DNA of 64,000 nucleotides from an uncultured Candidatus Saccharibacteria bacterium (GTDB lineage: Bacteria; Patescibacteriota; Minisyncoccia; Phycocordibacterales; UBA9973). Positions 19,635 through 63,745 of this stretch are shown here, one piece after another (within the stretch, counting starts at the first letter, position 1; the number at the start of each line of letters is the position of its first letter). The position numbers and the translations under genes are program-made. The stretch spans positions 3,137-67,136 of the forward strand of contig CAYTXV010000003.1 of the NCBI GenBank assembly GCA_964441495.1, written 5' to 3'. Under the pieces are notes generated by a model. That model was not told where the DNA came from, searched no databases, and was given only the letters and a program-made list of their open reading frames with translations.

Positions 19635-21797
19635 TTGACTATGGCCAAACCCAAGAAAAAAGCCAAACAAGAAACAGGAAGTCGGACCAACAAAGTAGTA
19701 CTTGGTCTTGTACTTATCCTTATCGCACTCGTTGTTGTTGGTGGTATGGCAGGAAGTGCAGGTGTTGGTGGATTTCTCCTATTTAAACTCTCCTACGGAC
19801 TCCTTGGCACAGGGAGCGTCATCATCCCGATCGCGCTCGGTACTGCGGGGATATTCATCCTTCGCAACAAACGCTTTGAGGTGACATCTCGCGAAATCAT
19901 CAGTGGTTCTATAGGGCTCATCTCGCTACTAACCCTTGTTGCAATCGGCAACCCAAGTTATGGCGGACTCCTTGGACGACTCGTATCGATACCACTTGTC
20001 GGTGCGTTTGATACAGTGTTTGCAACGATCATCCTTCTCTTTGTTGTGGTGTGCTCGTTTGCTATCTTCTTTGATCGGACACCGAACCTCTTCCCATTCT
20101 TTAGTAGTATCTGGGCTCGTATCCGCGCACTCTTTGCGCAAAAAGAGCACGCTGAAGTGCTTGACGATACTACAGGGCTTTCTCCAGAAGATGCGCAAGA
20201 AGACACCTACCAAGAACCTGAGCAAGCTCAGCCAGCGGTAGCTGCAAAAGCAGCTCCGGTCAAGATAACCGATGCTTCAGCAAATGAGCTCGTCATCGAT
20301 ACCAAGAAACGTCCTGTATCATACGGCACCTATACCCCACCACCACTTTCACTCCTTGAAGGAGATCGCGGCAAAGCAAACGTCGGGGATGTCAAAGCAA
20401 ACACCAACATCATACGCCGGACCCTTGGCAACTTTGGGATTGAGGTTGAGATGGATGAAGTCACCATCGGCCCAACTGTCACTCGCTATGCGCTCAAACC
20501 AGCCCAGGGCGTCAAACTCTCGCGCATCGTTGGGCTCCAGAACGATCTCGCGCTCTCCCTTGCTGCACACCCGCTACGTATCGAAGCACCGATCCCAGGC
20601 AAATCACTCGTCGGTATCGAGATACCCAACAAGACCAAAGCAACTGTGGGACTCGCAAGCCTACTTGCTGATCCTGGGTTCACCGGAAGTACAAAACCTC
20701 TCACTGTCGCGCTCGGACGCAACATCGCTGGTAAACCAGTCCTCAAGAGCGTCGCGAGTATGCCGCACCTCCTCATCGCTGGTACCACTGGTTCTGGTAA
20801 GTCCGTGACTATCCATGCAATCATCGCATCACTCTTGTACCGACATGGACCTGACGATCTGCGATTTATCTTTGTCGATCCTAAGCGCGTCGAACTCACC
20901 CTCTACAACGGTATCCCACATCTCCTGACCCCAGTACTCACCGATCCCAAAAAGGCGATCCTCGCGCTCAAATGGGCAGCAACAGAGATGAACCGCCGCT
21001 ACGATATCCTTGAGCAAGAATCAGCCCGCGACATCACTTCGTACCACAAAAAGTACGCTCAAGACTTTGCCAAAAACAGCGAAGATGGTCCTGAACGCAT
21101 GCCGTATATCGTGATCGTCATCGATGAGCTCGCCGATATCATGCAGGCGTTCCCACGTGAACTCGAAGCTGCAATCGTACGTCTCGCACAGATGTCTCGT
21201 GCGGTTGGTATCCACCTTATCCTTTCGACCCAGCGTCCAGAAGTCAACGTCATCACCGGTCTCATCAAGGCAAACGTCCCAAGTCGTATCGCGCTCCGTG
21301 TCCCCACAGGTATCGACTCTCGCACCATCCTCGACACGACTGGCGCCGAGAAACTCCTTGGGCAAGGAGACATGCTCGCAATCGTCGGCGAGAACCAGCC
21401 TGAGCGCCTCCAGAGTGCCTTTATCACCGAGGAGGAAGTAAAGAGTGTCGTGAAGTATCTCAAAGATGCGTTCAAAGACGACATCCGCGACACCATTGAA
21501 CTCTCTGGAAACGTTTCTCCTGGAGACCGTCCAATGTTTGGAGATTCTATGGAAGAAGACGCTGACGACCCCCTCTACGAAGATGCTCGTGCGTGTGTCA
21601 TCGAGGCAGGCAAGGCATCGACTTCATACATCCAGCGCAAGCTCCGCGTGGGCTATGGCCGCGCAGCGAGACTCATAGATATACTCGAACAACGAGGCGT
21701 GATCGGACCTGCAGACGGTGCCAAACCTCGGGTGATCCTCGAGGGTGGTATCAAAGACGCAGTCAGCGATACTGTTGCAGAAGAAATGGGTATATAA
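19635..21797 (+). CDS. ftsK: DNA translocase FtsK/SpoIIIE
   Basis: N-terminal TM helices; Walker A GTTGSGKS; VIVIDELADI; C-terminal gamma wHTH (SYIQRKLRVGYGRAARLIDILE). Confidence 0.93.
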   Translation: MTMAKPKKKAKQETGSRTNKVVLGLVLILIALVVVGGMAGSAGVGGFLLFKLSYGLLGTGSVIIPIALGTAGIFILRNKRFEVTSREIISGSIGLISLLTLVAIGNPSYGGLLGRLVSIPLVGAFDTVFATIILLFVVVCSFAIFFDRTPNLFPFFSSIWARIRALFAQKEHAEVLDDTTGLSPEDAQEDTYQEPEQAQPAVAAKAAPVKITDASANELVIDTKKRPVSYGTYTPPPLSLLEGDRGKANVGDVKANTNIIRRTLGNFGIEVEMDEVTIGPTVTRYALKPAQGVKLSRIVGLQNDLALSLAAHPLRIEAPIPGKSLVGIEIPNKTKATVGLASLLADPGFTGSTKPLTVALGRNIAGKPVLKSVASMPHLLIAGTTGSGKSVTIHAIIASLLYRHGPDDLRFIFVDPKRVELTLYNGIPHLLTPVLTDPKKAILALKWAATEMNRRYDILEQESARDITSYHKKYAQDFAKNSEDGPERMPYIVIVIDELADIMQAFPRELEAAIVRLAQMSRAVGIHLILSTQRPEVNVITGLIKANVPSRIALRVPTGIDSRTILDTTGAEKLLGQGDMLAIVGENQPERLQSAFITEEEVKSVVKYLKDAFKDDIRDTIELSGNVSPGDRPMFGDSMEEDADDPLYEDARACVIEAGKASTSYIQRKLRVGYGRAARLIDILEQRGVIGPADGAKPRVILEGGIKDAVSDTVAEEMGI

Positions 21798-21798
21798 T

Positions 21799-22200
21799 AT
21801 GAAGACCACCACACGTATGCAGCTACGACTCACACTTCGATCTGGACTCTACATTATCGGCGGGATCGCCATCCTCGCACTTGTGTGGATAAACATGCGC
21901 GACAGCATCCTCGGCACCCCGCTCGTTGTCCGTACAGCACCTGATGGTACGACACTCACCTCTGCAGTGCTTCCTATCAAAGGCAGCGCGCGCCATGCCC
22001 GAGAACTCCTCATCAACGGCAGACCAATCACCATGAACCGTGACGGTTCGTTTGCAGACGAGATACTGCTCTCTCCTGGATACAACATCGTCGAAGTCGC
22101 ACTTCGCGATCAGTTTGGTAATCAAAAAACAAAAACATATCAGTTTGTCATGAACCCCGCGACAACTGTTGCGGTCAATCCTGACACGCCTTATCAATAA
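21799..22200 (+). CDS. Hypothetical membrane-anchored protein with small beta (Ig-like) ectodomain
   Basis: Start trimmed to ATG 21799 (MKTTTRMQLRL), just past the ftsK stop; one TM helix (LYIIGGIAILALVWI). Confidence 0.55.
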   Translation: MKTTTRMQLRLTLRSGLYIIGGIAILALVWINMRDSILGTPLVVRTAPDGTTLTSAVLPIKGSARHARELLINGRPITMNRDGSFADEILLSPGYNIVEVALRDQFGNQKTKTYQFVMNPATTVAVNPDTPYQ

Positions 22201-38199: not shown

Positions 38200-39582
38200 T
38201 TAGTTGCAATCCAATTCTACCACATCACCTTCTTGTGGTGCATATGCTTCAACACCGAGATAGTCACGTAGACGCTGCGTGAGATACAGAGAGCTCTTGG
38301 GTTCACCCATTGCAACGTATACCTTTTTGAGTGAGTCTGCAGTTTGCTCAACAAATTCGATGAGGTGATCAGAGTCTTTGTGTCCAGAGTATCCATCGAT
38401 GAACACCACGTGTGCTTTGACTGGGATCGTCTTGCCGTTGATGGTGACCTCTTTGGCACCATCTTGGATTGCGCGCCCCATTGTGCCGAGCGATTGATAT
38501 CCCGTGAGGAGGAGTGTGTTGTTAGGATCAGGGAGATAGTTTGCCTCGTGGTGCAGGACTCGACCGCCGTTACTCATGCCGCTCCCTGCGATCACAATCT
38601 TGGGGTTGGTAGTGTGAAGGATGTCTTTTGATTCCTCGGTGAGCAGTGTCGACTTGAGTCCAGGGAAACTAAAGATGTCATCACCTGCTCCGACGAGTGT
38701 GCGTGCAAAGTCGTTAAAGTATCGCGCATGCTTTGCATATACTTTGGTAAGTTTAATGCCAAGCGGTGAATCAAAAAAGATAGGCATCTGCGGCACGCGA
38801 TCATGCTCGACGAGCTGATCTATCTCAAAAAGGAGCTCTTGGCTTCGTTCAAGTGAAAACGTCGGGATAATCAGTGTCCCCTTTCGTTTGTAGTTGTCTT
38901 CGATGGTTGCTTCGAGCCGCTCGCGCCGGACTGCACGCTCGGTGTGGTTGCGGTCACCATACACACTCTCCATGAGGAGATAGTCGACTTTTGTAAGCGC
39001 TTCGGTATCGCGCAAGAGCGGTGAGGGAGAGTTTCCGAGATCTCCAGTAAAGACAATCTTTTTGTTGTTGTAGATGAGCTCGAGCATCCCCGATCCGAGC
39101 ACGTGGCCTGCATCACGATAGCGAAACACATATTCTCCGATAGTAAGGTCTTGATGGTAATCAATCACGTTCCAGAGTTTCATCACCTCTTGCATTGTCT
39201 TGGGGCTATAGATGTCTTTGAGCGCTTCGTTTTCGCTATGTGAGAGGATGTTTGCGGTATCTTCGAGCATGAGCTCTGCGATGTCTTTTGTAGGGATTGT
39301 TGAATATATTTTGCCTTTGAACCCATCGTGCACAAGTTTGGGAATGCGTCCGATGTGATCAATGTGCGCATGGGTCACAAAGAGTATATCGATCGAAGAC
39401 AGATCATATGGAAATGGATTCCAGTTCCAATCATCAGCCATCTTGGTTCCTTGGTTGAGTCCGCAATCAACGAGAAACTTGATCCCTGCTCCTTCAACAA
39501 GGAAGTTTGCACCGGTCACACTTCCTGTACCACCAGCAAAGGTGAGTGTGAGTGTATGATTTTTTTGCGCAGCGTCAGGCAT
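38200..39582 (-). CDS. MBL-fold beta-CASP family hydrolase (RNA-metabolising type)
   Basis: FVTHAHIDHIGRIP (HxHxDH), AGHVLGS, beta-CASP-length insert, SGHKDSDHL C-terminal motif. Confidence 0.85.
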   Translation of the reverse strand: MPDAAQKNHTLTLTFAGGTGSVTGANFLVEGAGIKFLVDCGLNQGTKMADDWNWNPFPYDLSSIDILFVTHAHIDHIGRIPKLVHDGFKGKIYSTIPTKDIAELMLEDTANILSHSENEALKDIYSPKTMQEVMKLWNVIDYHQDLTIGEYVFRYRDAGHVLGSGMLELIYNNKKIVFTGDLGNSPSPLLRDTEALTKVDYLLMESVYGDRNHTERAVRRERLEATIEDNYKRKGTLIIPTFSLERSQELLFEIDQLVEHDRVPQMPIFFDSPLGIKLTKVYAKHARYFNDFARTLVGAGDDIFSFPGLKSTLLTEESKDILHTTNPKIVIAGSGMSNGGRVLHHEANYLPDPNNTLLLTGYQSLGTMGRAIQDGAKEVTINGKTIPVKAHVVFIDGYSGHKDSDHLIEFVEQTADSLKKVYVAMGEPKSSLYLTQRLRDYLGVEAYAPQEGDVVELDCN

Positions 39583-39980
39583 TAGTCTTTATTGTACCGT
39601 TTCTGCAAGAGAAGCACAAAAGATACGCCAACAACTCCACCAATCATATCGCAGATGAGATCTGAGATAGAGTCACTGATGCTCGCAAGTTGTACACCTT
39701 TGACAAAAAACTGCACAATGTACTCGTAGTACTCCCATGCAAGTCCGACAACAAACACAAACAGGAGTATCGTGATGAGTAGCTCACTTGTAGTAAGCAC
39801 GCTCTTTCTCTTTGCAAGCGCAGCGGCGCCACACAGCGCAACAAACACTCCCCCGATCCCGTGCATGGGCATATCAAACCAACCAATAGTGACGTACCAA
39901 TAAAACGTATTGGCAAGCCAGTTGACCACACACAACCCGATCCCAGTGAGCGCCGAAGCGGTAAGTACACGTCGATACAT
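39582..39980 (-). CDS. Hypothetical integral membrane protein
   Basis: Start trimmed to ATG 39980 (MYRRVLT), 6 nt after a TGGCATACT box; 4 predicted TM helices; TAATG overlap with downstream gene. Confidence 0.6.
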   Translation of the reverse strand: MYRRVLTASALTGIGLCVVNWLANTFYWYVTIGWFDMPMHGIGGVFVALCGAAALAKRKSVLTTSELLITILLFVFVVGLAWEYYEYIVQFFVKGVQLASISDSISDLICDMIGGVVGVSFVLLLQKRYNKD

Positions 39981-39986
39981 ACCCCT

Positions 39987-39995
39987 AGTATGCCA
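39987..39995 (-). promoter_or_regulatory. Extended -10 promoter (TGGCATACT), leaderless-type, for the membrane protein/beta-CASP/SLOG operon
   Basis: Minus strand TGGCATACT-aggggt-ATG. Confidence 0.45.
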
Positions 39996-39996
39996 T

Positions 39997-40195
39997 ACAA
40001 AAAATCCCCTCACTATGCGTGAGAGGATCTCATTACGGCTATTTAGGAAATAGTACCTTAGCTTTGATGCCAAGTGGGCCACGCGAGATACAAAGATGCT
40101 TCGATGCAAAATTATTACTTCACACCCATAGCTTCCAGGTATCTACAACGGTTGCCCTGATAAACATGTTCTAAGTACTATTTGTAAATAGCCGT
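39997..40195 (-). ncRNA. Candidate ~200-nt small RNA (long irregular hairpin closed by its 5' and 3' ends, plus intrinsic terminator)
   Basis: TATACT box (40207-40202) 6-7 nt upstream of the 5' arm; arms 40195-40171 and 40061-40035 pair over ~23 bp; terminator CCTCTCAC-gcata-GTGAGGGG + TTTTTT at 40026-39997; no ORF. Confidence 0.45.
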
Positions 40196-40288
40196 ACCTC
40201 TAGTATACCTGCTCTGTGGTACGCAACAAGATAGACAGTGGATAAATCTAGTGTCTCGTTACCTCACAAGCACACAACAGCGCGGTTG

Positions 40289-40768
40289 TTACATCAAGTC
40301 GTCCGAAAATACGAATTTGGTATCAACCTTTTCGTATGCGACGAGCTCATCGACAGTGAAAAATCGCTCGATTTCTCGTGCGCCGTTTTCGACTGAGTCA
40401 GATGCGTGGACAACGTTGGACTGCATCGAGAGTGCGTAGTCGCCGCGGATCGTACCACCTTGTGCTTCATATCCCTTGGTAGGACCGACGATAGTGCGGA
40501 TAGCATCGACTGCCTTGATACCGGCAACCGCCATCACCACAACAGGCGATGACATCATGAACCGCTCAATGCGTGGATAGAACGGCTTGTCAGCAACGTG
40601 TGCGTAGTGTTCGCGTAGAAGCGCTTCTTTGAGCTCCATCATCTTCATCCCGATGATTTTGAGCCCCTTGCGTTCAAAGCGAGTAATGATCTCCCCGACG
40701 AGGGATCGCTGCACTGCGTCTGGCTTGATGATGATAAGTGATCGTTCTTCTGTTTCGTGGATTTTCAT
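40289..40768 (-). CDS. ndk: Nucleoside diphosphate kinase
   Basis: ERSLIIIKPDAVQRSLVGEIITRFERKGLKIIG; NVVHASDS active-site His. Confidence 0.95.
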   Translation of the reverse strand: MKIHETEERSLIIIKPDAVQRSLVGEIITRFERKGLKIIGMKMMELKEALLREHYAHVADKPFYPRIERFMMSSPVVVMAVAGIKAVDAIRTIVGPTKGYEAQGGTIRGDYALSMQSNVVHASDSVENGAREIERFFTVDELVAYEKVDTKFVFSDDLM

Positions 40769-40834: not shown

Positions 40835-41371
40835 CTAGACGGAATCTTCCGGTAGATAGATAATTTCGCTTTTCAGTTTTGTAAAAATTGCATGTTCCAT
40901 TGCCGCACCGATTGAATGTTCCCATCCGACAATAAAGTGGGGCTTCCATTCTTTGTCTGAATAAAATATGTCCCGGTAAAAATGGTCAATAAAAAACTTT
41001 GAGGTTTTATTACCCGGACACAGCTCTTTATTGTCTTTGATTAATTCATGTACTTTTGCAAACAATGGCTCAAAAGGCATCTGATTGAAAATTGGCATTT
41101 GATTTGAAATCTTTACAACGGTCTGGTTGAAAATTTCCAGATTTCTTTCCACGGAATATTTCCCGGTAGATATGGGACCGCAAACTATACCCAGCTGATG
41201 CGGCAGTCTTTTCAAATAATCCTTTGCAATAAGGGATGCCTTTTCCATAATAACCATTGCGTCTTCTAAGGAAGATAATGCTTCCAGTTCATCAATCATT
41301 GATTGATCCCATTGCTCGAAATAAAAAATACCGTTTTGTGCAGATGGTGTCCAATTTTTGAAATGTACCAT
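40835..41371 (-). CDS. Nucleoside 2-deoxyribosyltransferase-like / DUF4406-like protein
   Basis: CGPISTG early motif and C-terminal GWEHSIGAAMEHAIFTKLKSEIIYL resemble the W..S.GA..E...A signature; AT-rich gene. Confidence 0.5.
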   Translation of the reverse strand: MVHFKNWTPSAQNGIFYFEQWDQSMIDELEALSSLEDAMVIMEKASLIAKDYLKRLPHQLGIVCGPISTGKYSVERNLEIFNQTVVKISNQMPIFNQMPFEPLFAKVHELIKDNKELCPGNKTSKFFIDHFYRDIFYSDKEWKPHFIVGWEHSIGAAMEHAIFTKLKSEIIYLPEDSV

Positions 41372-43606: not shown

Positions 43607-44566
43607 ATGAAAAGAAATATTGTTATTTACAAACCTTATGCAGAAAGAATTCCTGATTCACAGTATAAAAATCTTCTGAAAGATATACTGGAAAACGGTT
43701 ATCAAAAAACTAGTATCCATGCTTCTTTACCCGAAAATGCCGGTTCAGGGCATAAACATTGTCTTGAACTACCTGGCAGAATGCTTCAATATAATCTCGC
43801 GAATGGCGCTCCAATAGAGCCTATCCGCGACCTTACAAAGCACGGACTTATTAAGGGGGCAATTGGTGAGATTATCGGATTCTTGAATGGAGCACGAACG
43901 CTTGACGAGCTTATCTCGTTTGGCTGCAAGAAAAATTTCTGGGAAAACTGGGTGACCGCAAAAAAATGTGGAGACTTCGGCCTGAACGAAGGAGATCTTG
44001 GCCCTGGTTCGTATGGACCTGTTCTCACGGCAATACCTATGGAGAATGGGAAAACTTTCAATCAGGTTGAAGCTGTATTCAAGAAGATGATAAAAAATCC
44101 ACTTGGACGAACAAATTTATTGAGTACCTGGTATCCACCTCTTGCTGTCGGAGATGAAGAACAAGGGTCGCCGAGGAAAGTTGTTGTTGCACCGTGTCAT
44201 GGCAACATTGTTCAATTTGATGTGATGGATAATACGACCATGCATATGGCGGTCTATCAACGATCTGCGGATTGCCCTGTTGGATTAGTCCTAAATCTTA
44301 CGGAATGGATTTCATGCGGTTTGATGGCAGCGTATATGACCAATACACAACTTACGTATTACACGCATTTTTTGCCGGACCCACAGATCTATGACATTCA
44401 AATCGAAAAAGTACAGCAACTACTTTCTAGAGACCCCTTAAGGCTTCCAAGCCTTTATCTCCGCCCTAAAAGAAAAATCAAATCGATTACCGACTTCAGG
44501 ATTGAAGATTTCGAGGTTGAGGATTATCACCCGCACTCGTGGATTTCTATTCCTTCTGCAATTTAG
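43607..44566 (+). CDS. Thymidylate synthase (ThyA) family protein, highly divergent
   Basis: VAPCHGNIVQFDV (catalytic Cys), YQRSADCPVGLVLNLTEW, C-terminus SRDPLRLPSLYLRPKRKIKSITDFRIEDFEVEDYHPHSWISIPSAI colinear with E. coli ThyA C-terminus; AT-rich. Confidence 0.8.
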   Translation: MKRNIVIYKPYAERIPDSQYKNLLKDILENGYQKTSIHASLPENAGSGHKHCLELPGRMLQYNLANGAPIEPIRDLTKHGLIKGAIGEIIGFLNGARTLDELISFGCKKNFWENWVTAKKCGDFGLNEGDLGPGSYGPVLTAIPMENGKTFNQVEAVFKKMIKNPLGRTNLLSTWYPPLAVGDEEQGSPRKVVVAPCHGNIVQFDVMDNTTMHMAVYQRSADCPVGLVLNLTEWISCGLMAAYMTNTQLTYYTHFLPDPQIYDIQIEKVQQLLSRDPLRLPSLYLRPKRKIKSITDFRIEDFEVEDYHPHSWISIPSAI

Positions 44567-44635
44567 TATTTATTATGTCCACTATCTTTTTGGTGGACAT
44601 TTTTTATAAATGATGTATGATAAAAAAATAATTTT

Positions 44636-45082
44636 ATGAGTACAAAAAAATACGTTGATATAACCAACACTCGAGGTGAAGAAATGCGAAAAAAATGGGA
44701 AAAAATTATTAATGATGCTGTCGACCCATTTGATCCAACTCATGTCGAAAAATACATCGGTGGAAAAATCCTTCACCAAGGTAAATATTGGTACGTGTTC
44801 AAAAATGATCATCCTTATACGGGTATAAAACATCAATTGGTTATTGTTACAAATGAGTTTTATGAAACCGATGAAGATTTACCATCCGAAGTTTGGCTTG
44901 AGCTTCAAACCATTAAAAGAATATTATGTGCTAAATATAATATTACCGGCGGTGGTTTGATTATGAGATTTGGTGATACATCATTTTCAGGAGGATCAGT
45001 TACTCACTTACACGCACAACTTATTATGCCAGAGGAAAATACAAAAGTTCCTGTGTGGTTTGGTTCTAAAAAAGAAGAATAG
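44636..45082 (+). CDS. HIT-superfamily-like protein with HxHxQ motif (GalT/Ap4A-phosphorylase branch-like)
   Basis: GGSVTHLHAQLIMP near the C-terminus; 148 aa; assignment rests on this motif and on size only. Confidence 0.5.
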   Translation: MSTKKYVDITNTRGEEMRKKWEKIINDAVDPFDPTHVEKYIGGKILHQGKYWYVFKNDHPYTGIKHQLVIVTNEFYETDEDLPSEVWLELQTIKRILCAKYNITGGGLIMRFGDTSFSGGSVTHLHAQLIMPEENTKVPVWFGSKKEE

Positions 45083-45087
45083 TAAAA

Positions 45088-45116
45088 AAGGTTCGTCGAA
45101 ATTATCGACGAACCTT
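45088..45116. terminator. Bidirectional rho-independent terminator between convergent genes
   Basis: AAGGTTCGTCGA-aatta-TCGACGAACCTT perfect 12-bp stem flanked by A-run and T-run. Confidence 0.85.
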
Positions 45117-45117
45117 T

Positions 45118-45951
45118 TTATTTTACCTGGATAATTTCAACTTTTGCTGCCCGTAGAAGTTCTACGGCATTTTGATTTGAATACCCTTCTTTGAAGAACA
45201 ATCGCTTGATACCAACCCTGGATATCATTTGTGCACATGGGAGACATGGAAACGTCGTTACGTACATATCTTCACCATACAAAGCAATTCCTTTTCGAAG
45301 CGCTTTTGCAAACAATGCTTTTTCTGCGTGAATTGCTCCACATATTTCGGGTTTTTCTCCTGGCTTCATAATGAGACGCATATCACCAGTCTCATATGGT
45401 TCCATAGATGTAGGTAGGTGTTCGTTATAGGCTACAAGAAATCCTTCTTTGAGCGGTATAAGTGCACCTACTTGTCTCCAGAAATCAGAGCTTTTTTGTG
45501 CTTCGTTTTGTGCAATACCCATCAACTCCTTATCTAAATCCGATGTTGATATCTTATAATCCGCAACTACTTCTTTAGGAGTATTAGTATTTCTCCAATC
45601 CCATCTTAGAAATGCGTTATCAAATACAACACTGGTTGAAGATGACACCTTTGCAGCAAGGATACGAGAGATATCTTCATCTGGCATTACCAATACATTG
45701 AAACGAGTAAGGTTTTCCACTTCTTCAAACTCGCGAATATTTAAAGCTGGAAATTTGCAGTGCAAATACGCTGCAACTTCGTGAGTAGGAATAGTACGGA
45801 TATCTCTACTGAATTGATCCGCAATAACCTGATCAATACTTTTTAAGTTTTGTGCAGAAAGTAATATAACATCTACTGGTTGATGTCGCTCGATAAGCGA
45901 AACGTATCCCTGATGAATTACTGGCATATAGAGCACGATTGCTTTTGTCAT
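45118..45951 (-). CDS. dCMP/cytidine deaminase-family protein with ~130-aa N-terminal domain of unknown function
   Basis: C-terminal half: GAIHAEKALF (HAE zinc site) and TFPCLPCAQMI (PCxxC); N-terminal half MTKAIVLYMPVIHQGYVSLIE... unassigned. Confidence 0.8.
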   Translation of the reverse strand: MTKAIVLYMPVIHQGYVSLIERHQPVDVILLSAQNLKSIDQVIADQFSRDIRTIPTHEVAAYLHCKFPALNIREFEEVENLTRFNVLVMPDEDISRILAAKVSSSTSVVFDNAFLRWDWRNTNTPKEVVADYKISTSDLDKELMGIAQNEAQKSSDFWRQVGALIPLKEGFLVAYNEHLPTSMEPYETGDMRLIMKPGEKPEICGAIHAEKALFAKALRKGIALYGEDMYVTTFPCLPCAQMISRVGIKRLFFKEGYSNQNAVELLRAAKVEIIQVK

Positions 45952-46646
45952 ACCGAACCTCCTTTTTGTTTAAAAAATTTAGTAATAGCATCTTCCAACC
46001 TGTCCAAATCTGCCGCACCATCCAATTCTTGCTTGAGAAATAAAGCAAGCTCATTTGATCCGTTTCCTGAAACCTTACGAATTTTTGCAGTAGTAGAGTT
46101 TGCTGATTGGGGTTCAAAAAATACAAGTTCTCCTGTGTAATCAGTAAGTGCGGCTCTAATTTTTTTCTCAAATGCAACAGGATCTTTGTCTGTTCCATAA
46201 GAAAAAACAGCTACATCAGGAAGTATATCCATTACCAGCTGGTCGGGGTGCTCTTTAACAGAACGAACGCAAACAATGTTTGTTGATCTGTTGTGTGCAA
46301 GTAGTTTTAATCGAACACTGATATCATCAATAGGTCGGTTTTTTTCATCTGGCTTTCGGAGTCGAGTAAGCTCATTGTCATCTACACCAACAATCAATAC
46401 ATCACCGAGTTTTTTGGCTTTTGCGAGATAGTCTACATGTCCATCATGCATCATGTCATAAACACCGCTGGTATAGACAATTTTTAGACCTTCTTTTTTA
46501 AGAAAACCAACAATGTACTTTAATTTCTTTCTATTGTTGATAATCCGATGTTCTTCACTTGGTTCATTACCCATGATCTTAAGAATACTTACATCTCCAT
46601 GATCAGGAAGTAGTTTAAAATACTTCTTTTCTTGATTATTATTCAT
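45948..46646 (-). CDS. Cytidylyltransferase-like nucleotidyltransferase (RfaE domain II / TagD-like)
   Basis: KIVYTSGVYDMMHDGHVDYLAKAKKLGDVLIVGVDDN...RPI...R...L; STTAKIRK near the C-terminus; ATGA overlap with the deaminase gene. Confidence 0.75.
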   Translation of the reverse strand: MNNNQEKKYFKLLPDHGDVSILKIMGNEPSEEHRIINNRKKLKYIVGFLKKEGLKIVYTSGVYDMMHDGHVDYLAKAKKLGDVLIVGVDDNELTRLRKPDEKNRPIDDISVRLKLLAHNRSTNIVCVRSVKEHPDQLVMDILPDVAVFSYGTDKDPVAFEKKIRAALTDYTGELVFFEPQSANSTTAKIRKVSGNGSNELALFLKQELDGAADLDRLEDAITKFFKQKGGSV

Positions 46647-61505: not shown

Positions 61506-61578
61506 GGGGCCTATCGGGAATCGAACCCGAATCGAAGGTTCCACAAACCTCAGTGTTAACCGTTACACCATAAGCCCC
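61506..61578 (-). tRNA. tRNA-His (GUG) with genomically encoded G-1; CCA not encoded
   Basis: Hand-folded cloverleaf: G(-1)+GGGCTTA acceptor, D stem GTGT/ACAC, anticodon loop TTGTGGA, T arm TCGGG-TTCGATT-CCCGA, discriminator C. Confidence 0.9.
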
Positions 61579-63661: not shown

Positions 63662-63745
63662 GCGCGGGTGGCGAAACTGGTAGACGCACTACCTTGAGGT
63701 GGTAGCGGGAGCAATCCTATGGAGGTTCAAGTCCTCTCTCGCGCA
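63662..63745 (+). tRNA. tRNA-Leu (GAG), class II long variable arm; CCA not encoded
   Basis: Hand-folded: acceptor GCGCGGG/CTCGCGC, D arm GCG-AAACTGGTAGA-CGC, anticodon loop TTGAGGT, variable arm, T arm GGAGG-TTCAAGT-CCTCT. Confidence 0.92.

Follow-up and report, generated by a model that had tools for sequence, protein, structure and literature searches.

The question raised by this locus is whether the gap that follows ndk in a 64,000-nucleotide (nt) stretch of DNA from an uncultured Candidatus Saccharibacteria bacterium (contig CAYTXV010000003.1 of assembly GCA_964441495.1), referred to here as the window, contains an RNA gene of its own, and, if so, what kind of RNA is encoded there. The initial annotation, made from the letters of the sequence, proposed an independent structured small RNA (sRNA) with an architecture like that of 6S RNA, and retained a protein operator or a miniature inverted-repeat transposable element (MITE) as fallback interpretations. 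The analysis presented here identifies the element as a real, conserved RNA gene with its own promoter and terminator. The ndk-linked RNA appears to represent a new family, absent from Rfam 15, and is probably a divergent 6S-like RNA. All coordinates are those of the window, and the features lie on its minus strand unless otherwise indicated.

The RNA gene downstream of ndk

The ndk gene (Ndk Pfam E = 1.9e-50) has its stop codon at 40289-40291, and the gap that follows, first reported as approximately 250 nt, measures 308 nt to the next plausible start codon (ATG 39980). The parts of the proposed gene lie where the initial annotation had placed them, beginning with a TATACT -10 box (40207-40202), followed by a 5' arm, ACGGCUAUUUACAAAUAGUACUUAG (40195-40171), a further approximately 110 nt of structure, and a 3' arm, CUAAGGUACUAUUUCCUAAAUAGCCGU (40061-40035), which pairs with the 5' arm. 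An intrinsic terminator, GAGAUCCUCUCAC-GCAUA-GUGAGGGGAU plus U6 (40031-39999), is evident from both the sequence and the fold. The predicted RNAfold energy is -80.6 kcal/mol, in comparison with -51.8 +/- 4.5 kcal/mol for 200 dinucleotide shuffles (z = -6.45), none of which is as stable (0/200).

Related loci were sought using the Ndk protein as the query, which recovered 30 contigs of metagenome-assembled genomes (MAGs) from the candidate phyla radiation (CPR)/Paceibacteria. In 18 of these contigs, ndk is followed by a homologue of the window element, with the two arms being the best conserved portions. This set was enlarged by a covariance model, R1, and by a pattern scan of metagenome contigs, to give 41 copies (36 distinct sequences) of 127-163 nt, in Paceibacteria MAGs and metagenomes, with one copy per locus. 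The copy is located directly after ndk wherever the contig reaches far enough upstream, and the Ndk proteins of the loci that carry the RNA are 38-94% identical to that of the window. In contigs of sufficient length, the genes are arranged in the order arginyl-tRNA synthetase (ArgRS)-(open reading frame, ORF)-Ndk-RNA-(VanZ-like)-beta-CASP nuclease, all on one strand, although the gene immediately downstream of the RNA varies between loci, being VanZ-like in some and beta-CASP in others.

The pattern of substitution in these copies is that of a structured RNA. In the first 19 sequences, RNAalifold predicts 37 pairs, with compensatory changes in 20 of them. Across the 36 distinct sequences, 96.6% of the alignment cells are able to pair, compared with 34-46% for shifted partners, and compensatory (double) changes are found in 22 of the 37 pairs, a result that none of 500 shuffles reaches by any measure. 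The covariance scores are 66-161 bits on the sense strand and 22-52 bits on the antisense strand, a gap that is consistent with strand-specific G-U pairs. With its 41 copies, a promoter at a fixed distance, a terminator, and strong covariation, the independent sRNA gene of the initial annotation is supported on the minus strand.

The promoter is conserved together with the RNA. A conserved upstream block, CACTGTCTATCTTGT (40226-40240), includes a -35-like TTG (TTGTTG 40229-40224), situated 16-17 nt upstream of the -10 box, and the consensus ctgtctatcTTgt is found at an equal distance in 38 distinct upstream regions. In these same 38 regions, the -10 hexamer (40202-40207 in the window), which occupies positions -12 to -7 in the homologues, reads TATAAT in 21, TATACT in 13, CATAAT in three, and TAAAAT in one. 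The spacing between the -10 box and an invariant 5'-ACGG is 6 nt in all copies, and the A of this motif (A40195), 7 nt after the box, is the inferred start of transcription. At the other end of the gene, the window terminator (39999-40031), GAGAUCCUCUCAC/GCAUA/GUGAGGGGAU plus its U-tract in the RNAfold structure, has a counterpart in every homologous copy, that is, a hairpin and U-run located 1-6 nt past an invariant AGCCGUAA, with stem sequences that are unrelated between lineages.

Generic scans were of little use in the delimitation of the gene. The promoter scan overlooked the real promoter, whose -35 has TTG only, while the terminator scan flagged an internal CUUGGC/GCUAAG hairpin and overlooked the real terminator, so conservation was relied on instead. 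Two candidate reading frames were also rejected. A 175-amino acid (aa) ORF with a TTG start (39582-40109) reaches into the RNA and was probably over-called, given that the RNA-type covariation and the indels in its upstream part render this portion not credible, and a short AUG ORF inside the bubble of the window copy is not conserved in the family.

An inverted repeat, (A)GACA-N12-14-TGTC(T), at 40233-40256, is found between the ndk stop codon and the RNA promoter, and is conserved in most loci. The 3' half of the repeat extends into the CTGTCTATCTTG block that is conserved at the -35 region, and the left half reads GTTCGACAGTATTTTTT in many loci. The repeat might serve as a weak terminator for ndk, or as an operator acting on the RNA promoter.

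Structure of the RNA and its likeness to 6S RNA

The RNA core is approximately 163 nt long, or approximately 197 nt with the terminator hairpin, and folds into a rod composed of a closing helix of 21-23 base pairs (bp; P1a plus P1b), a central bubble of approximately 13 x 13 nt, and a variable terminal arm. In the outer closing helix, P1a, the 5' strand, ACGGCUAUUU (40186-40195), forms 10 bp with the 3' strand, AAAUAGCCGU (40035-40044), which is followed, in the family alignment, by an invariant AA. This helix is almost invariant, with 99.4% of the cells paired and compensatory changes in three pairs. A small internal loop separates P1a from the inner closing helix, P1b, in which AAAUAGUACUUAG (40171-40183) and CUAAGGUACUAUUU (40048-40061) contribute 11 pairs, six of them with compensatory changes, and 99.2% of the cells are paired. 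The 3' strand of P1b contains a 1-nt bulge, and the pair beside it varies among C-G, U-G, and U-A.

The 5' strand of the central bubble, AACAUGUUUAUCA (40158-40170), starts with a conserved AAC(A) in the alignment of the 36 sequences, all of which have A at columns 28-29, and 32 of which have C at column 30. The length of this strand in the family is 13-15 nt, with an A+U content of 76%. The 3' strand, ACUUGGCAUCAAAG (40062-40075), is 12-14 nt long in the family and contains the motif ACYURGC, which is invariant or near-invariant (columns 142-146, 148, 150, and 151 are invariant over the 36 distinct sequences). Between the two strands, the terminal arm, P2 (40076-40157), is an irregular hairpin that runs from GGGC to GCCC and ends in a variable tip. 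Its three helices (helices 3-5) have 16 pairs, 13 of which show compensatory changes, and the arm varies from 46 to 82 nt across the family, with invariant basal GG/CC pairs.

This architecture was compared with that of the Escherichia coli ssrS RNA and with the consensus and structure of the Rfam 6S family, RF00013, whose consensus reads, segment by segment, gcccCuGAgCC, gAaaauuuuuauaaua, GGG-a-gccc...gggc-a-CCC, ACCUggaAcagCa, and GGuUCaAgggc. Like 6S RNA, the ndk-linked RNA is independently transcribed, measures some 130-200 nt, and has a closing stem, a central bubble, and a terminal arm. The 6S bubble, with its A/U-rich strand of 16 nt (gAaaauuuuuauaaua) and a second strand of 13 nt, is matched by strands of 13-15 and 12-14 nt, and the inner closing helix is 10-11 bp long in both, with a single-nucleotide irregularity. 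In both, three G-C pairs (GGG/CCC) close the terminal arm, and a small internal loop comes next. No fully conserved run in the 6S consensus is longer than CCC followed by ACCUgg(a), and its counterpart at the same junction of the ndk-linked RNA is CCC followed by ACYURG(C), with the A of the motif being equivalent to A131 of E. coli, the first nucleotide of the 3' bubble strand, in the "-10-like" region. P1b is proposed to be the counterpart of the 6S "downstream duplex" (designated P2 in 6S) and the predicted template of a product RNA.

A further point of comparison is the potential for a release hairpin. In the window copy, the ACUUGGC of the 3' bubble strand could base-pair with GCUAAGGU (40062-40054), the 3' strand of the top of P1b, and a complementarity between these same two elements, the 3' bubble strand and the 3' strand of the inner closing helix, is also a feature of E. 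coli 6S. The resulting alternative hairpin, formed by columns 145-151 and 158-167, is pairable in 97.2% of the cells, compared with 12-44% for shifted partners, and is approximately iso-energetic with the top of P1b (mean ddG, the difference in folding free energy, of -1.3 +/- 2.5 kcal/mol). The hairpin is part of the predicted minimum free energy (MFE) structure in 22 of the 36 members, including the window copy, which is also a caveat on the bubble, given that part of its 3' strand sits in this small hairpin in those structures. When a 14-nt product-RNA footprint is masked on the 5' strand, the alternative hairpin forms in 34 of the 36 sequences.

When E. coli 6S is hybridized to its product RNA, nucleotides 132-136 become paired with the 3' strand of the downstream duplex, and the resulting 9-bp hairpin has an important role in release (PMC8876501). 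The alternative hairpin of the ndk-linked RNA uses positions equivalent to 132-136. In Bacillus subtilis 6S-1, a small hairpin of the 3' bubble strand can form in the free RNA (PMC8876501), like that predicted for the 22 members. Release of 6S-1 follows another route, in which the 5' bubble strand joins the 3' strand of P2 in a "central bubble collapse helix", and no conserved equivalent of this helix was seen in the ndk-linked RNA, in which the alternative pairing is of the E. coli type. The predicted start of the product RNA, C40168, stands third in the 5' bubble strand, the position that the U44 start of E. coli 6S holds in the RF00013 annotation. It is also a C, like the product-RNA start of B. 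subtilis 6S-1, C40 (PMC8876501). A version of 6S-1 cut down to the bubble and two short arms completes the 6S cycle (PMC8876501), and, as this truncated RNA still works, the small size of the natural members, down to 127 nt, is no obstacle to a 6S function.

Taken together, these likenesses suggest a mechanism that, as a whole, is regarded as more probable than not. The ndk-linked RNA would be a housekeeping small RNA of the Paceibacteria, transcribed from a sigma-70-type promoter, starting at A40195 and ending near 39999. By their resemblance to an open promoter, the bubble and its flanking helices would keep the holoenzyme of RNA polymerase and the primary sigma factor occupied, with the invariant A-C-Y-U-R-G that opens the 3' bubble strand acting as the "-10-like" non-template strand. 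Once nucleoside triphosphates became available, the polymerase would use the 5' bubble strand as a template, starting at the conserved C40168 and reading into P1b, to produce a short RNA predicted to be 5'-GUUCUAAGUACUAU. The synthesis of this product would unzip P1b and free its 3' strand, GCUAAGGU, which could then pair with ACUUGGC, leading to the collapse of the bubble and the release of the polymerase, as in E. coli 6S. The gene and its conservation, the secondary structure, the motif in common with 6S, the conserved single strands, and the potential for two mutually exclusive pairings are observed, whereas the binding of the polymerase, the synthesis of the product RNA, and the switch are predictions.

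The weighing of the 6S reading must take into account the searches with covariance models. Using Rfam 15, in which the gathering threshold of RF00013 is 46.4 bits and the positive control, E. coli ssrS, scores 139.8 bits, the whole window returned only two tRNA genes at the gathering threshold (61506-61577, minus strand, and 63662-63745, plus strand), and the ndk-linked RNA matched neither RF00013 nor any other Rfam family. The absence of an RF00013 match in the window or in the loci of a second RNA, fam-2 (described below), was counted in favor of the 6S-like reading, with the proviso that the scans covered loci rather than whole genomes, and that a canonical 6S RNA may be present elsewhere in these genomes, which counts in the opposite direction.

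A number of further points weigh against the 6S reading. At E <= 10, no RF00013 match was found in window positions 39900-40350 (a 451-nt slice) or in a homologous slice of 156 nt (L031:3845-4000), and, with the filters off, the best score of model R1 at the E. coli ssrS locus was 4 bits, at a site outside ssrS. As the reciprocal covariance models find nothing, homology with 6S cannot be demonstrated statistically. Compensatory changes are lacking in the alternative hairpin, since both of its strands are conserved, so that it represents a conserved potential rather than a proven structure. The closing stem is much shorter than that of 6S, with an internal loop of 2-4 x 3-7 nt where 6S has one of approximately 12 x 13, and ACGGCUAU/AUAGCCGUAA, at the end of the closing helix, hardly varies. 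Such constancy is not typical of 6S, and may point to recognition by a specific partner or to a signal for processing or stability. The terminal arm, which measures only 46 nt in some members, offers no assignable "-35-like" region, so that this region may be missing. The 3' end also differs, being generated by an intrinsic terminator rather than by processing. The 6S-like architecture of the initial annotation can be defined more closely, by the bubble dimensions, the junction motif, and the release-hairpin potential, but is unproven, as the covariance models fail in both directions. Given the failure of the models, the short stem, the almost invariant stem end, and the lack of a "-35-like" region, the RNA is filed as a new family that probably works in the manner of 6S and may be a divergent homologue, and not as a demonstrated member of 6S.

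The Ms1 RNA of the Actinobacteria is approximately 300 nt long. Ms1 is a rod-shaped RNA related to 6S, which binds RNA polymerase, was missed by 6S models, and was located by synteny (PMC9130861), and the ndk-linked RNA is comparable to it in general character. Ms1 differs in binding the core RNA polymerase rather than the holoenzyme (PMC9130861), and in belonging to the Actinobacteria.

Sister RNAs and rival explanations

A second RNA of approximately 130 nt, fam-2, is found directly after ndk in other Paceibacteria, and looks unrelated to the window RNA. Its loci are L017:3494-3623, L020:2012-2141, L021:3496-3625, L022:3487-3618, L024:3505-3634, L025:3429-3558, L026:3539-3667, L029:3494-3631, and L030:203-336. 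Like the ndk-linked RNA, fam-2 has its own TATAAT/TATACT box and a terminator, is closed by its 5' and 3' ends, and occupies the same slot. It differs in its conserved core, UAGGGAAUCCGnGU ... hairpin loop CYYGUGGG ... CAGGACAACCA, and in lacking the CCCACYU motif. The fam-2 fold consists of a long single-stranded 5' segment, a main hairpin, and a 3' hairpin, with a closing stem that covaries and compensatory changes in 16 of 34 pairs. The 5' AAAAAGAUU segment of fam-2 has two potential partners, the 3' arm and a local AAUYUUUU segment, and this dual pairing may possibly be another switch. Neither R1, with default filters, nor any Rfam family matched fam-2. Motifs resembling P4 of RNase P, sought by eye in fam-2, were dismissed.

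A further variant lies in L027 (approximately 590-715), downstream of the ndk match, which ends at 953. It keeps the core of the family of the window RNA, GGGAGC ... GCACCCACCUAG, with the exact 6S-consensus CCCACCU, while its closing stem, AGGGUUGUUUGA.../...UCAAAUGACCCU, is entirely different in sequence. L027-like members retain GGGAGC...CCCACCUAG and change the closing stem. This variant was missed by R1 with default filters, and may be useful as a bridge for iterative searches. Ten fam-2 and L027 loci were also searched against Rfam at E <= 10, and the Rfam searches as a whole returned only tRNAs, a fragment of small-subunit ribosomal RNA, and noise.

Other known RNAs were considered and rejected, in agreement with the initial annotation, which had recognized no motifs of signal recognition particle (SRP) RNA, transfer-messenger RNA (tmRNA), or RNase P RNA. 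No SRP match was found for the ndk-linked RNA in Rfam, and its apical part, rather than forming the conserved domain IV of the bacterial SRP RNA (4.5S), with its GNRA tetraloop and conserved internal loops, is the most variable in both sequence and length. The RNase P, tmRNA, and Y RNA models also gave no matches, and the conserved and variable regions are misplaced for these RNAs.

The most durable of the rival explanations is that the ndk-linked RNA is a lineage-specific structured sRNA unrelated to 6S, for example, a protein-binding, scaffold, or bistable regulatory RNA, which is possible, if somewhat unlikely. The end of the closing helix and the single strands (UAGAACA and CCCACYURGC) might then be recognized by a partner other than the polymerase, maybe one linked to Ndk or to the beta-CASP protein. 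The failure of the covariance models in both directions and the near-invariant ACGGCUAU/AUAGCCGUAA, atypical for 6S, count in its favor, and the strict synteny of the RNA between ndk and the gene of the beta-CASP ribonuclease family also favors this explanation, as does the three-way junction (P1, P2, and a small P3 hairpin) that constitutes the predicted MFE structure of the 22 members mentioned above. The bubble geometry, the GGG/CCC pairs followed by ACYU, and the arrangement of the release hairpin all coincide, however, with positions of the 6S consensus, the chance of finding a 7-nt motif at this junction being approximately 1e-3 to 1e-4 by the author's own estimate, and no data point to an alternative partner.

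A broader version of this explanation, in which the ndk-linked RNA and fam-2 together form a new class of housekeeping RNA in the CPR that is not homologous to 6S, is judged to be rather improbable. Such an RNA would be either a rod or a bistable three-way junction, and the end of its stem and its single-stranded motifs would bind a partner other than the polymerase, possibly one linked to Ndk or beta-CASP.

It is very unlikely that the element is a cis-regulatory leader, either a riboswitch or an attenuator, of the downstream VanZ-like and beta-CASP genes, even though its arrangement, in which a structured domain closed by P1 leads directly into an intrinsic terminator ahead of a gene, is the one classically seen in riboswitches, and a beta-CASP gene is found downstream in every locus that reaches far enough. 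The closing helix of 21-23 bp is very stable and does not overlap the terminator, so that no anti-terminator alternative is visible, and no Rfam riboswitch or cis-regulatory family matches the element. The terminator of the RNA itself, the separate and apparently leaderless promoter of the downstream gene that follows it, with a -10 box 6-8 nt before the ATG, and the variation of the immediate downstream gene between VanZ-like and beta-CASP all argue against a cis-acting leader.

A reading at the level of the DNA, either as a MITE or the remains of a transposon, or as two palindromic protein operators, has a negligible probability, for while the arms are inverted repeats, each of them palindromic in the window copy (CTATTT-n-AAATAG), and the only direct repeat, a 15-nt GGYATACTAGRGGTA, is found at 40209-40195 and 39994-39980, the arm occurs once in the 64-kb window (expected by chance, 0), the element is present once per locus at a constant syntenic site across species with Ndk of 38-94% identity, which rules out a MITE, the base pairs covary as RNA, including strand-specific G-U pairs, the within-arm palindrome is lost in L012, L015, and L027 while the arm-to-arm pairing is kept by compensatory changes, which rules out DNA operators, and the GGYATACTAGRGGTA repeat represents two similar -10 regions, rather than a target-site duplication, and does not abut the inverted repeat, given the 40-nt terminator that lies between them on the 3' side. 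Of the palindrome reported in the initial annotation, then, the window copy is confirmed, its conservation is not, and both fallback interpretations are set aside.

Neighboring genes and significance of the family

The genes that flank the ndk-linked RNA include a 178-aa ORF (40835-41371) between ArgRS and ndk, with no Pfam match at E <= 0.01, and a 460-aa metallo-beta-lactamase/beta-CASP/RMMBL protein of the RNase J/CPSF-like ribonuclease family (38200-39582), whose gene is the first or second after the RNA in all of the loci of sufficient length. The 6S RNAs of B. subtilis are processed by RNase J1 (PMC10578484). The downstream VanZ-like membrane protein has a Pfam VanZ match of E = 0.003, which is below the cut-off. 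Elsewhere in the window, the GC content is approximately 0.46-0.49, with outliers of 0.535 at 20001-22000 and 0.379 at 44001-46000.

The start of the VanZ-like gene (39978-39994) has a -10 box, CATACT (39992-39987), located 6 nt before the ATG (39980). Across L001-L052, the gene after the RNA has a -10-like box (CATACT, GATACT, GATAAT, or TACAAT) 6-8 nt before the ATG, and is without Shine-Dalgarno spacing, which suggests that this gene is expressed from leaderless mRNAs in these Paceibacteria. The 6-nt spacing between the -10 box and the ATG points to a leaderless mRNA and, by analogy, to a start of the ndk-linked RNA at A40195.

Nothing on 6S RNA in the CPR, the Patescibacteria, or the Parcubacteria was found in the collection of papers searched, in which the terms "6S RNA" and "Patescibacteria" appear together in a single paper, on the SRP RNA. 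The CPR/Patescibacteria are ultra-small bacteria that have tiny genomes and almost no characterized regulators. If the 6S reading is correct, the global control of RNA polymerase by a mimic of the open promoter would have been kept in these reduced genomes, and the family would provide naturally minimal 6S variants, of 127-163 nt, that parallel the engineered, truncated 6S-1 of B. subtilis. The covariance model, combined with the rule of synteny downstream of ndk, would then offer a means of annotating 6S in Paceibacteria MAGs. If the RNA is not 6S, it would represent a new, strongly conserved class of structured RNA with a built-in alternative pairing. In either case, the support from covariation is sufficient for the submission of the family to Rfam.

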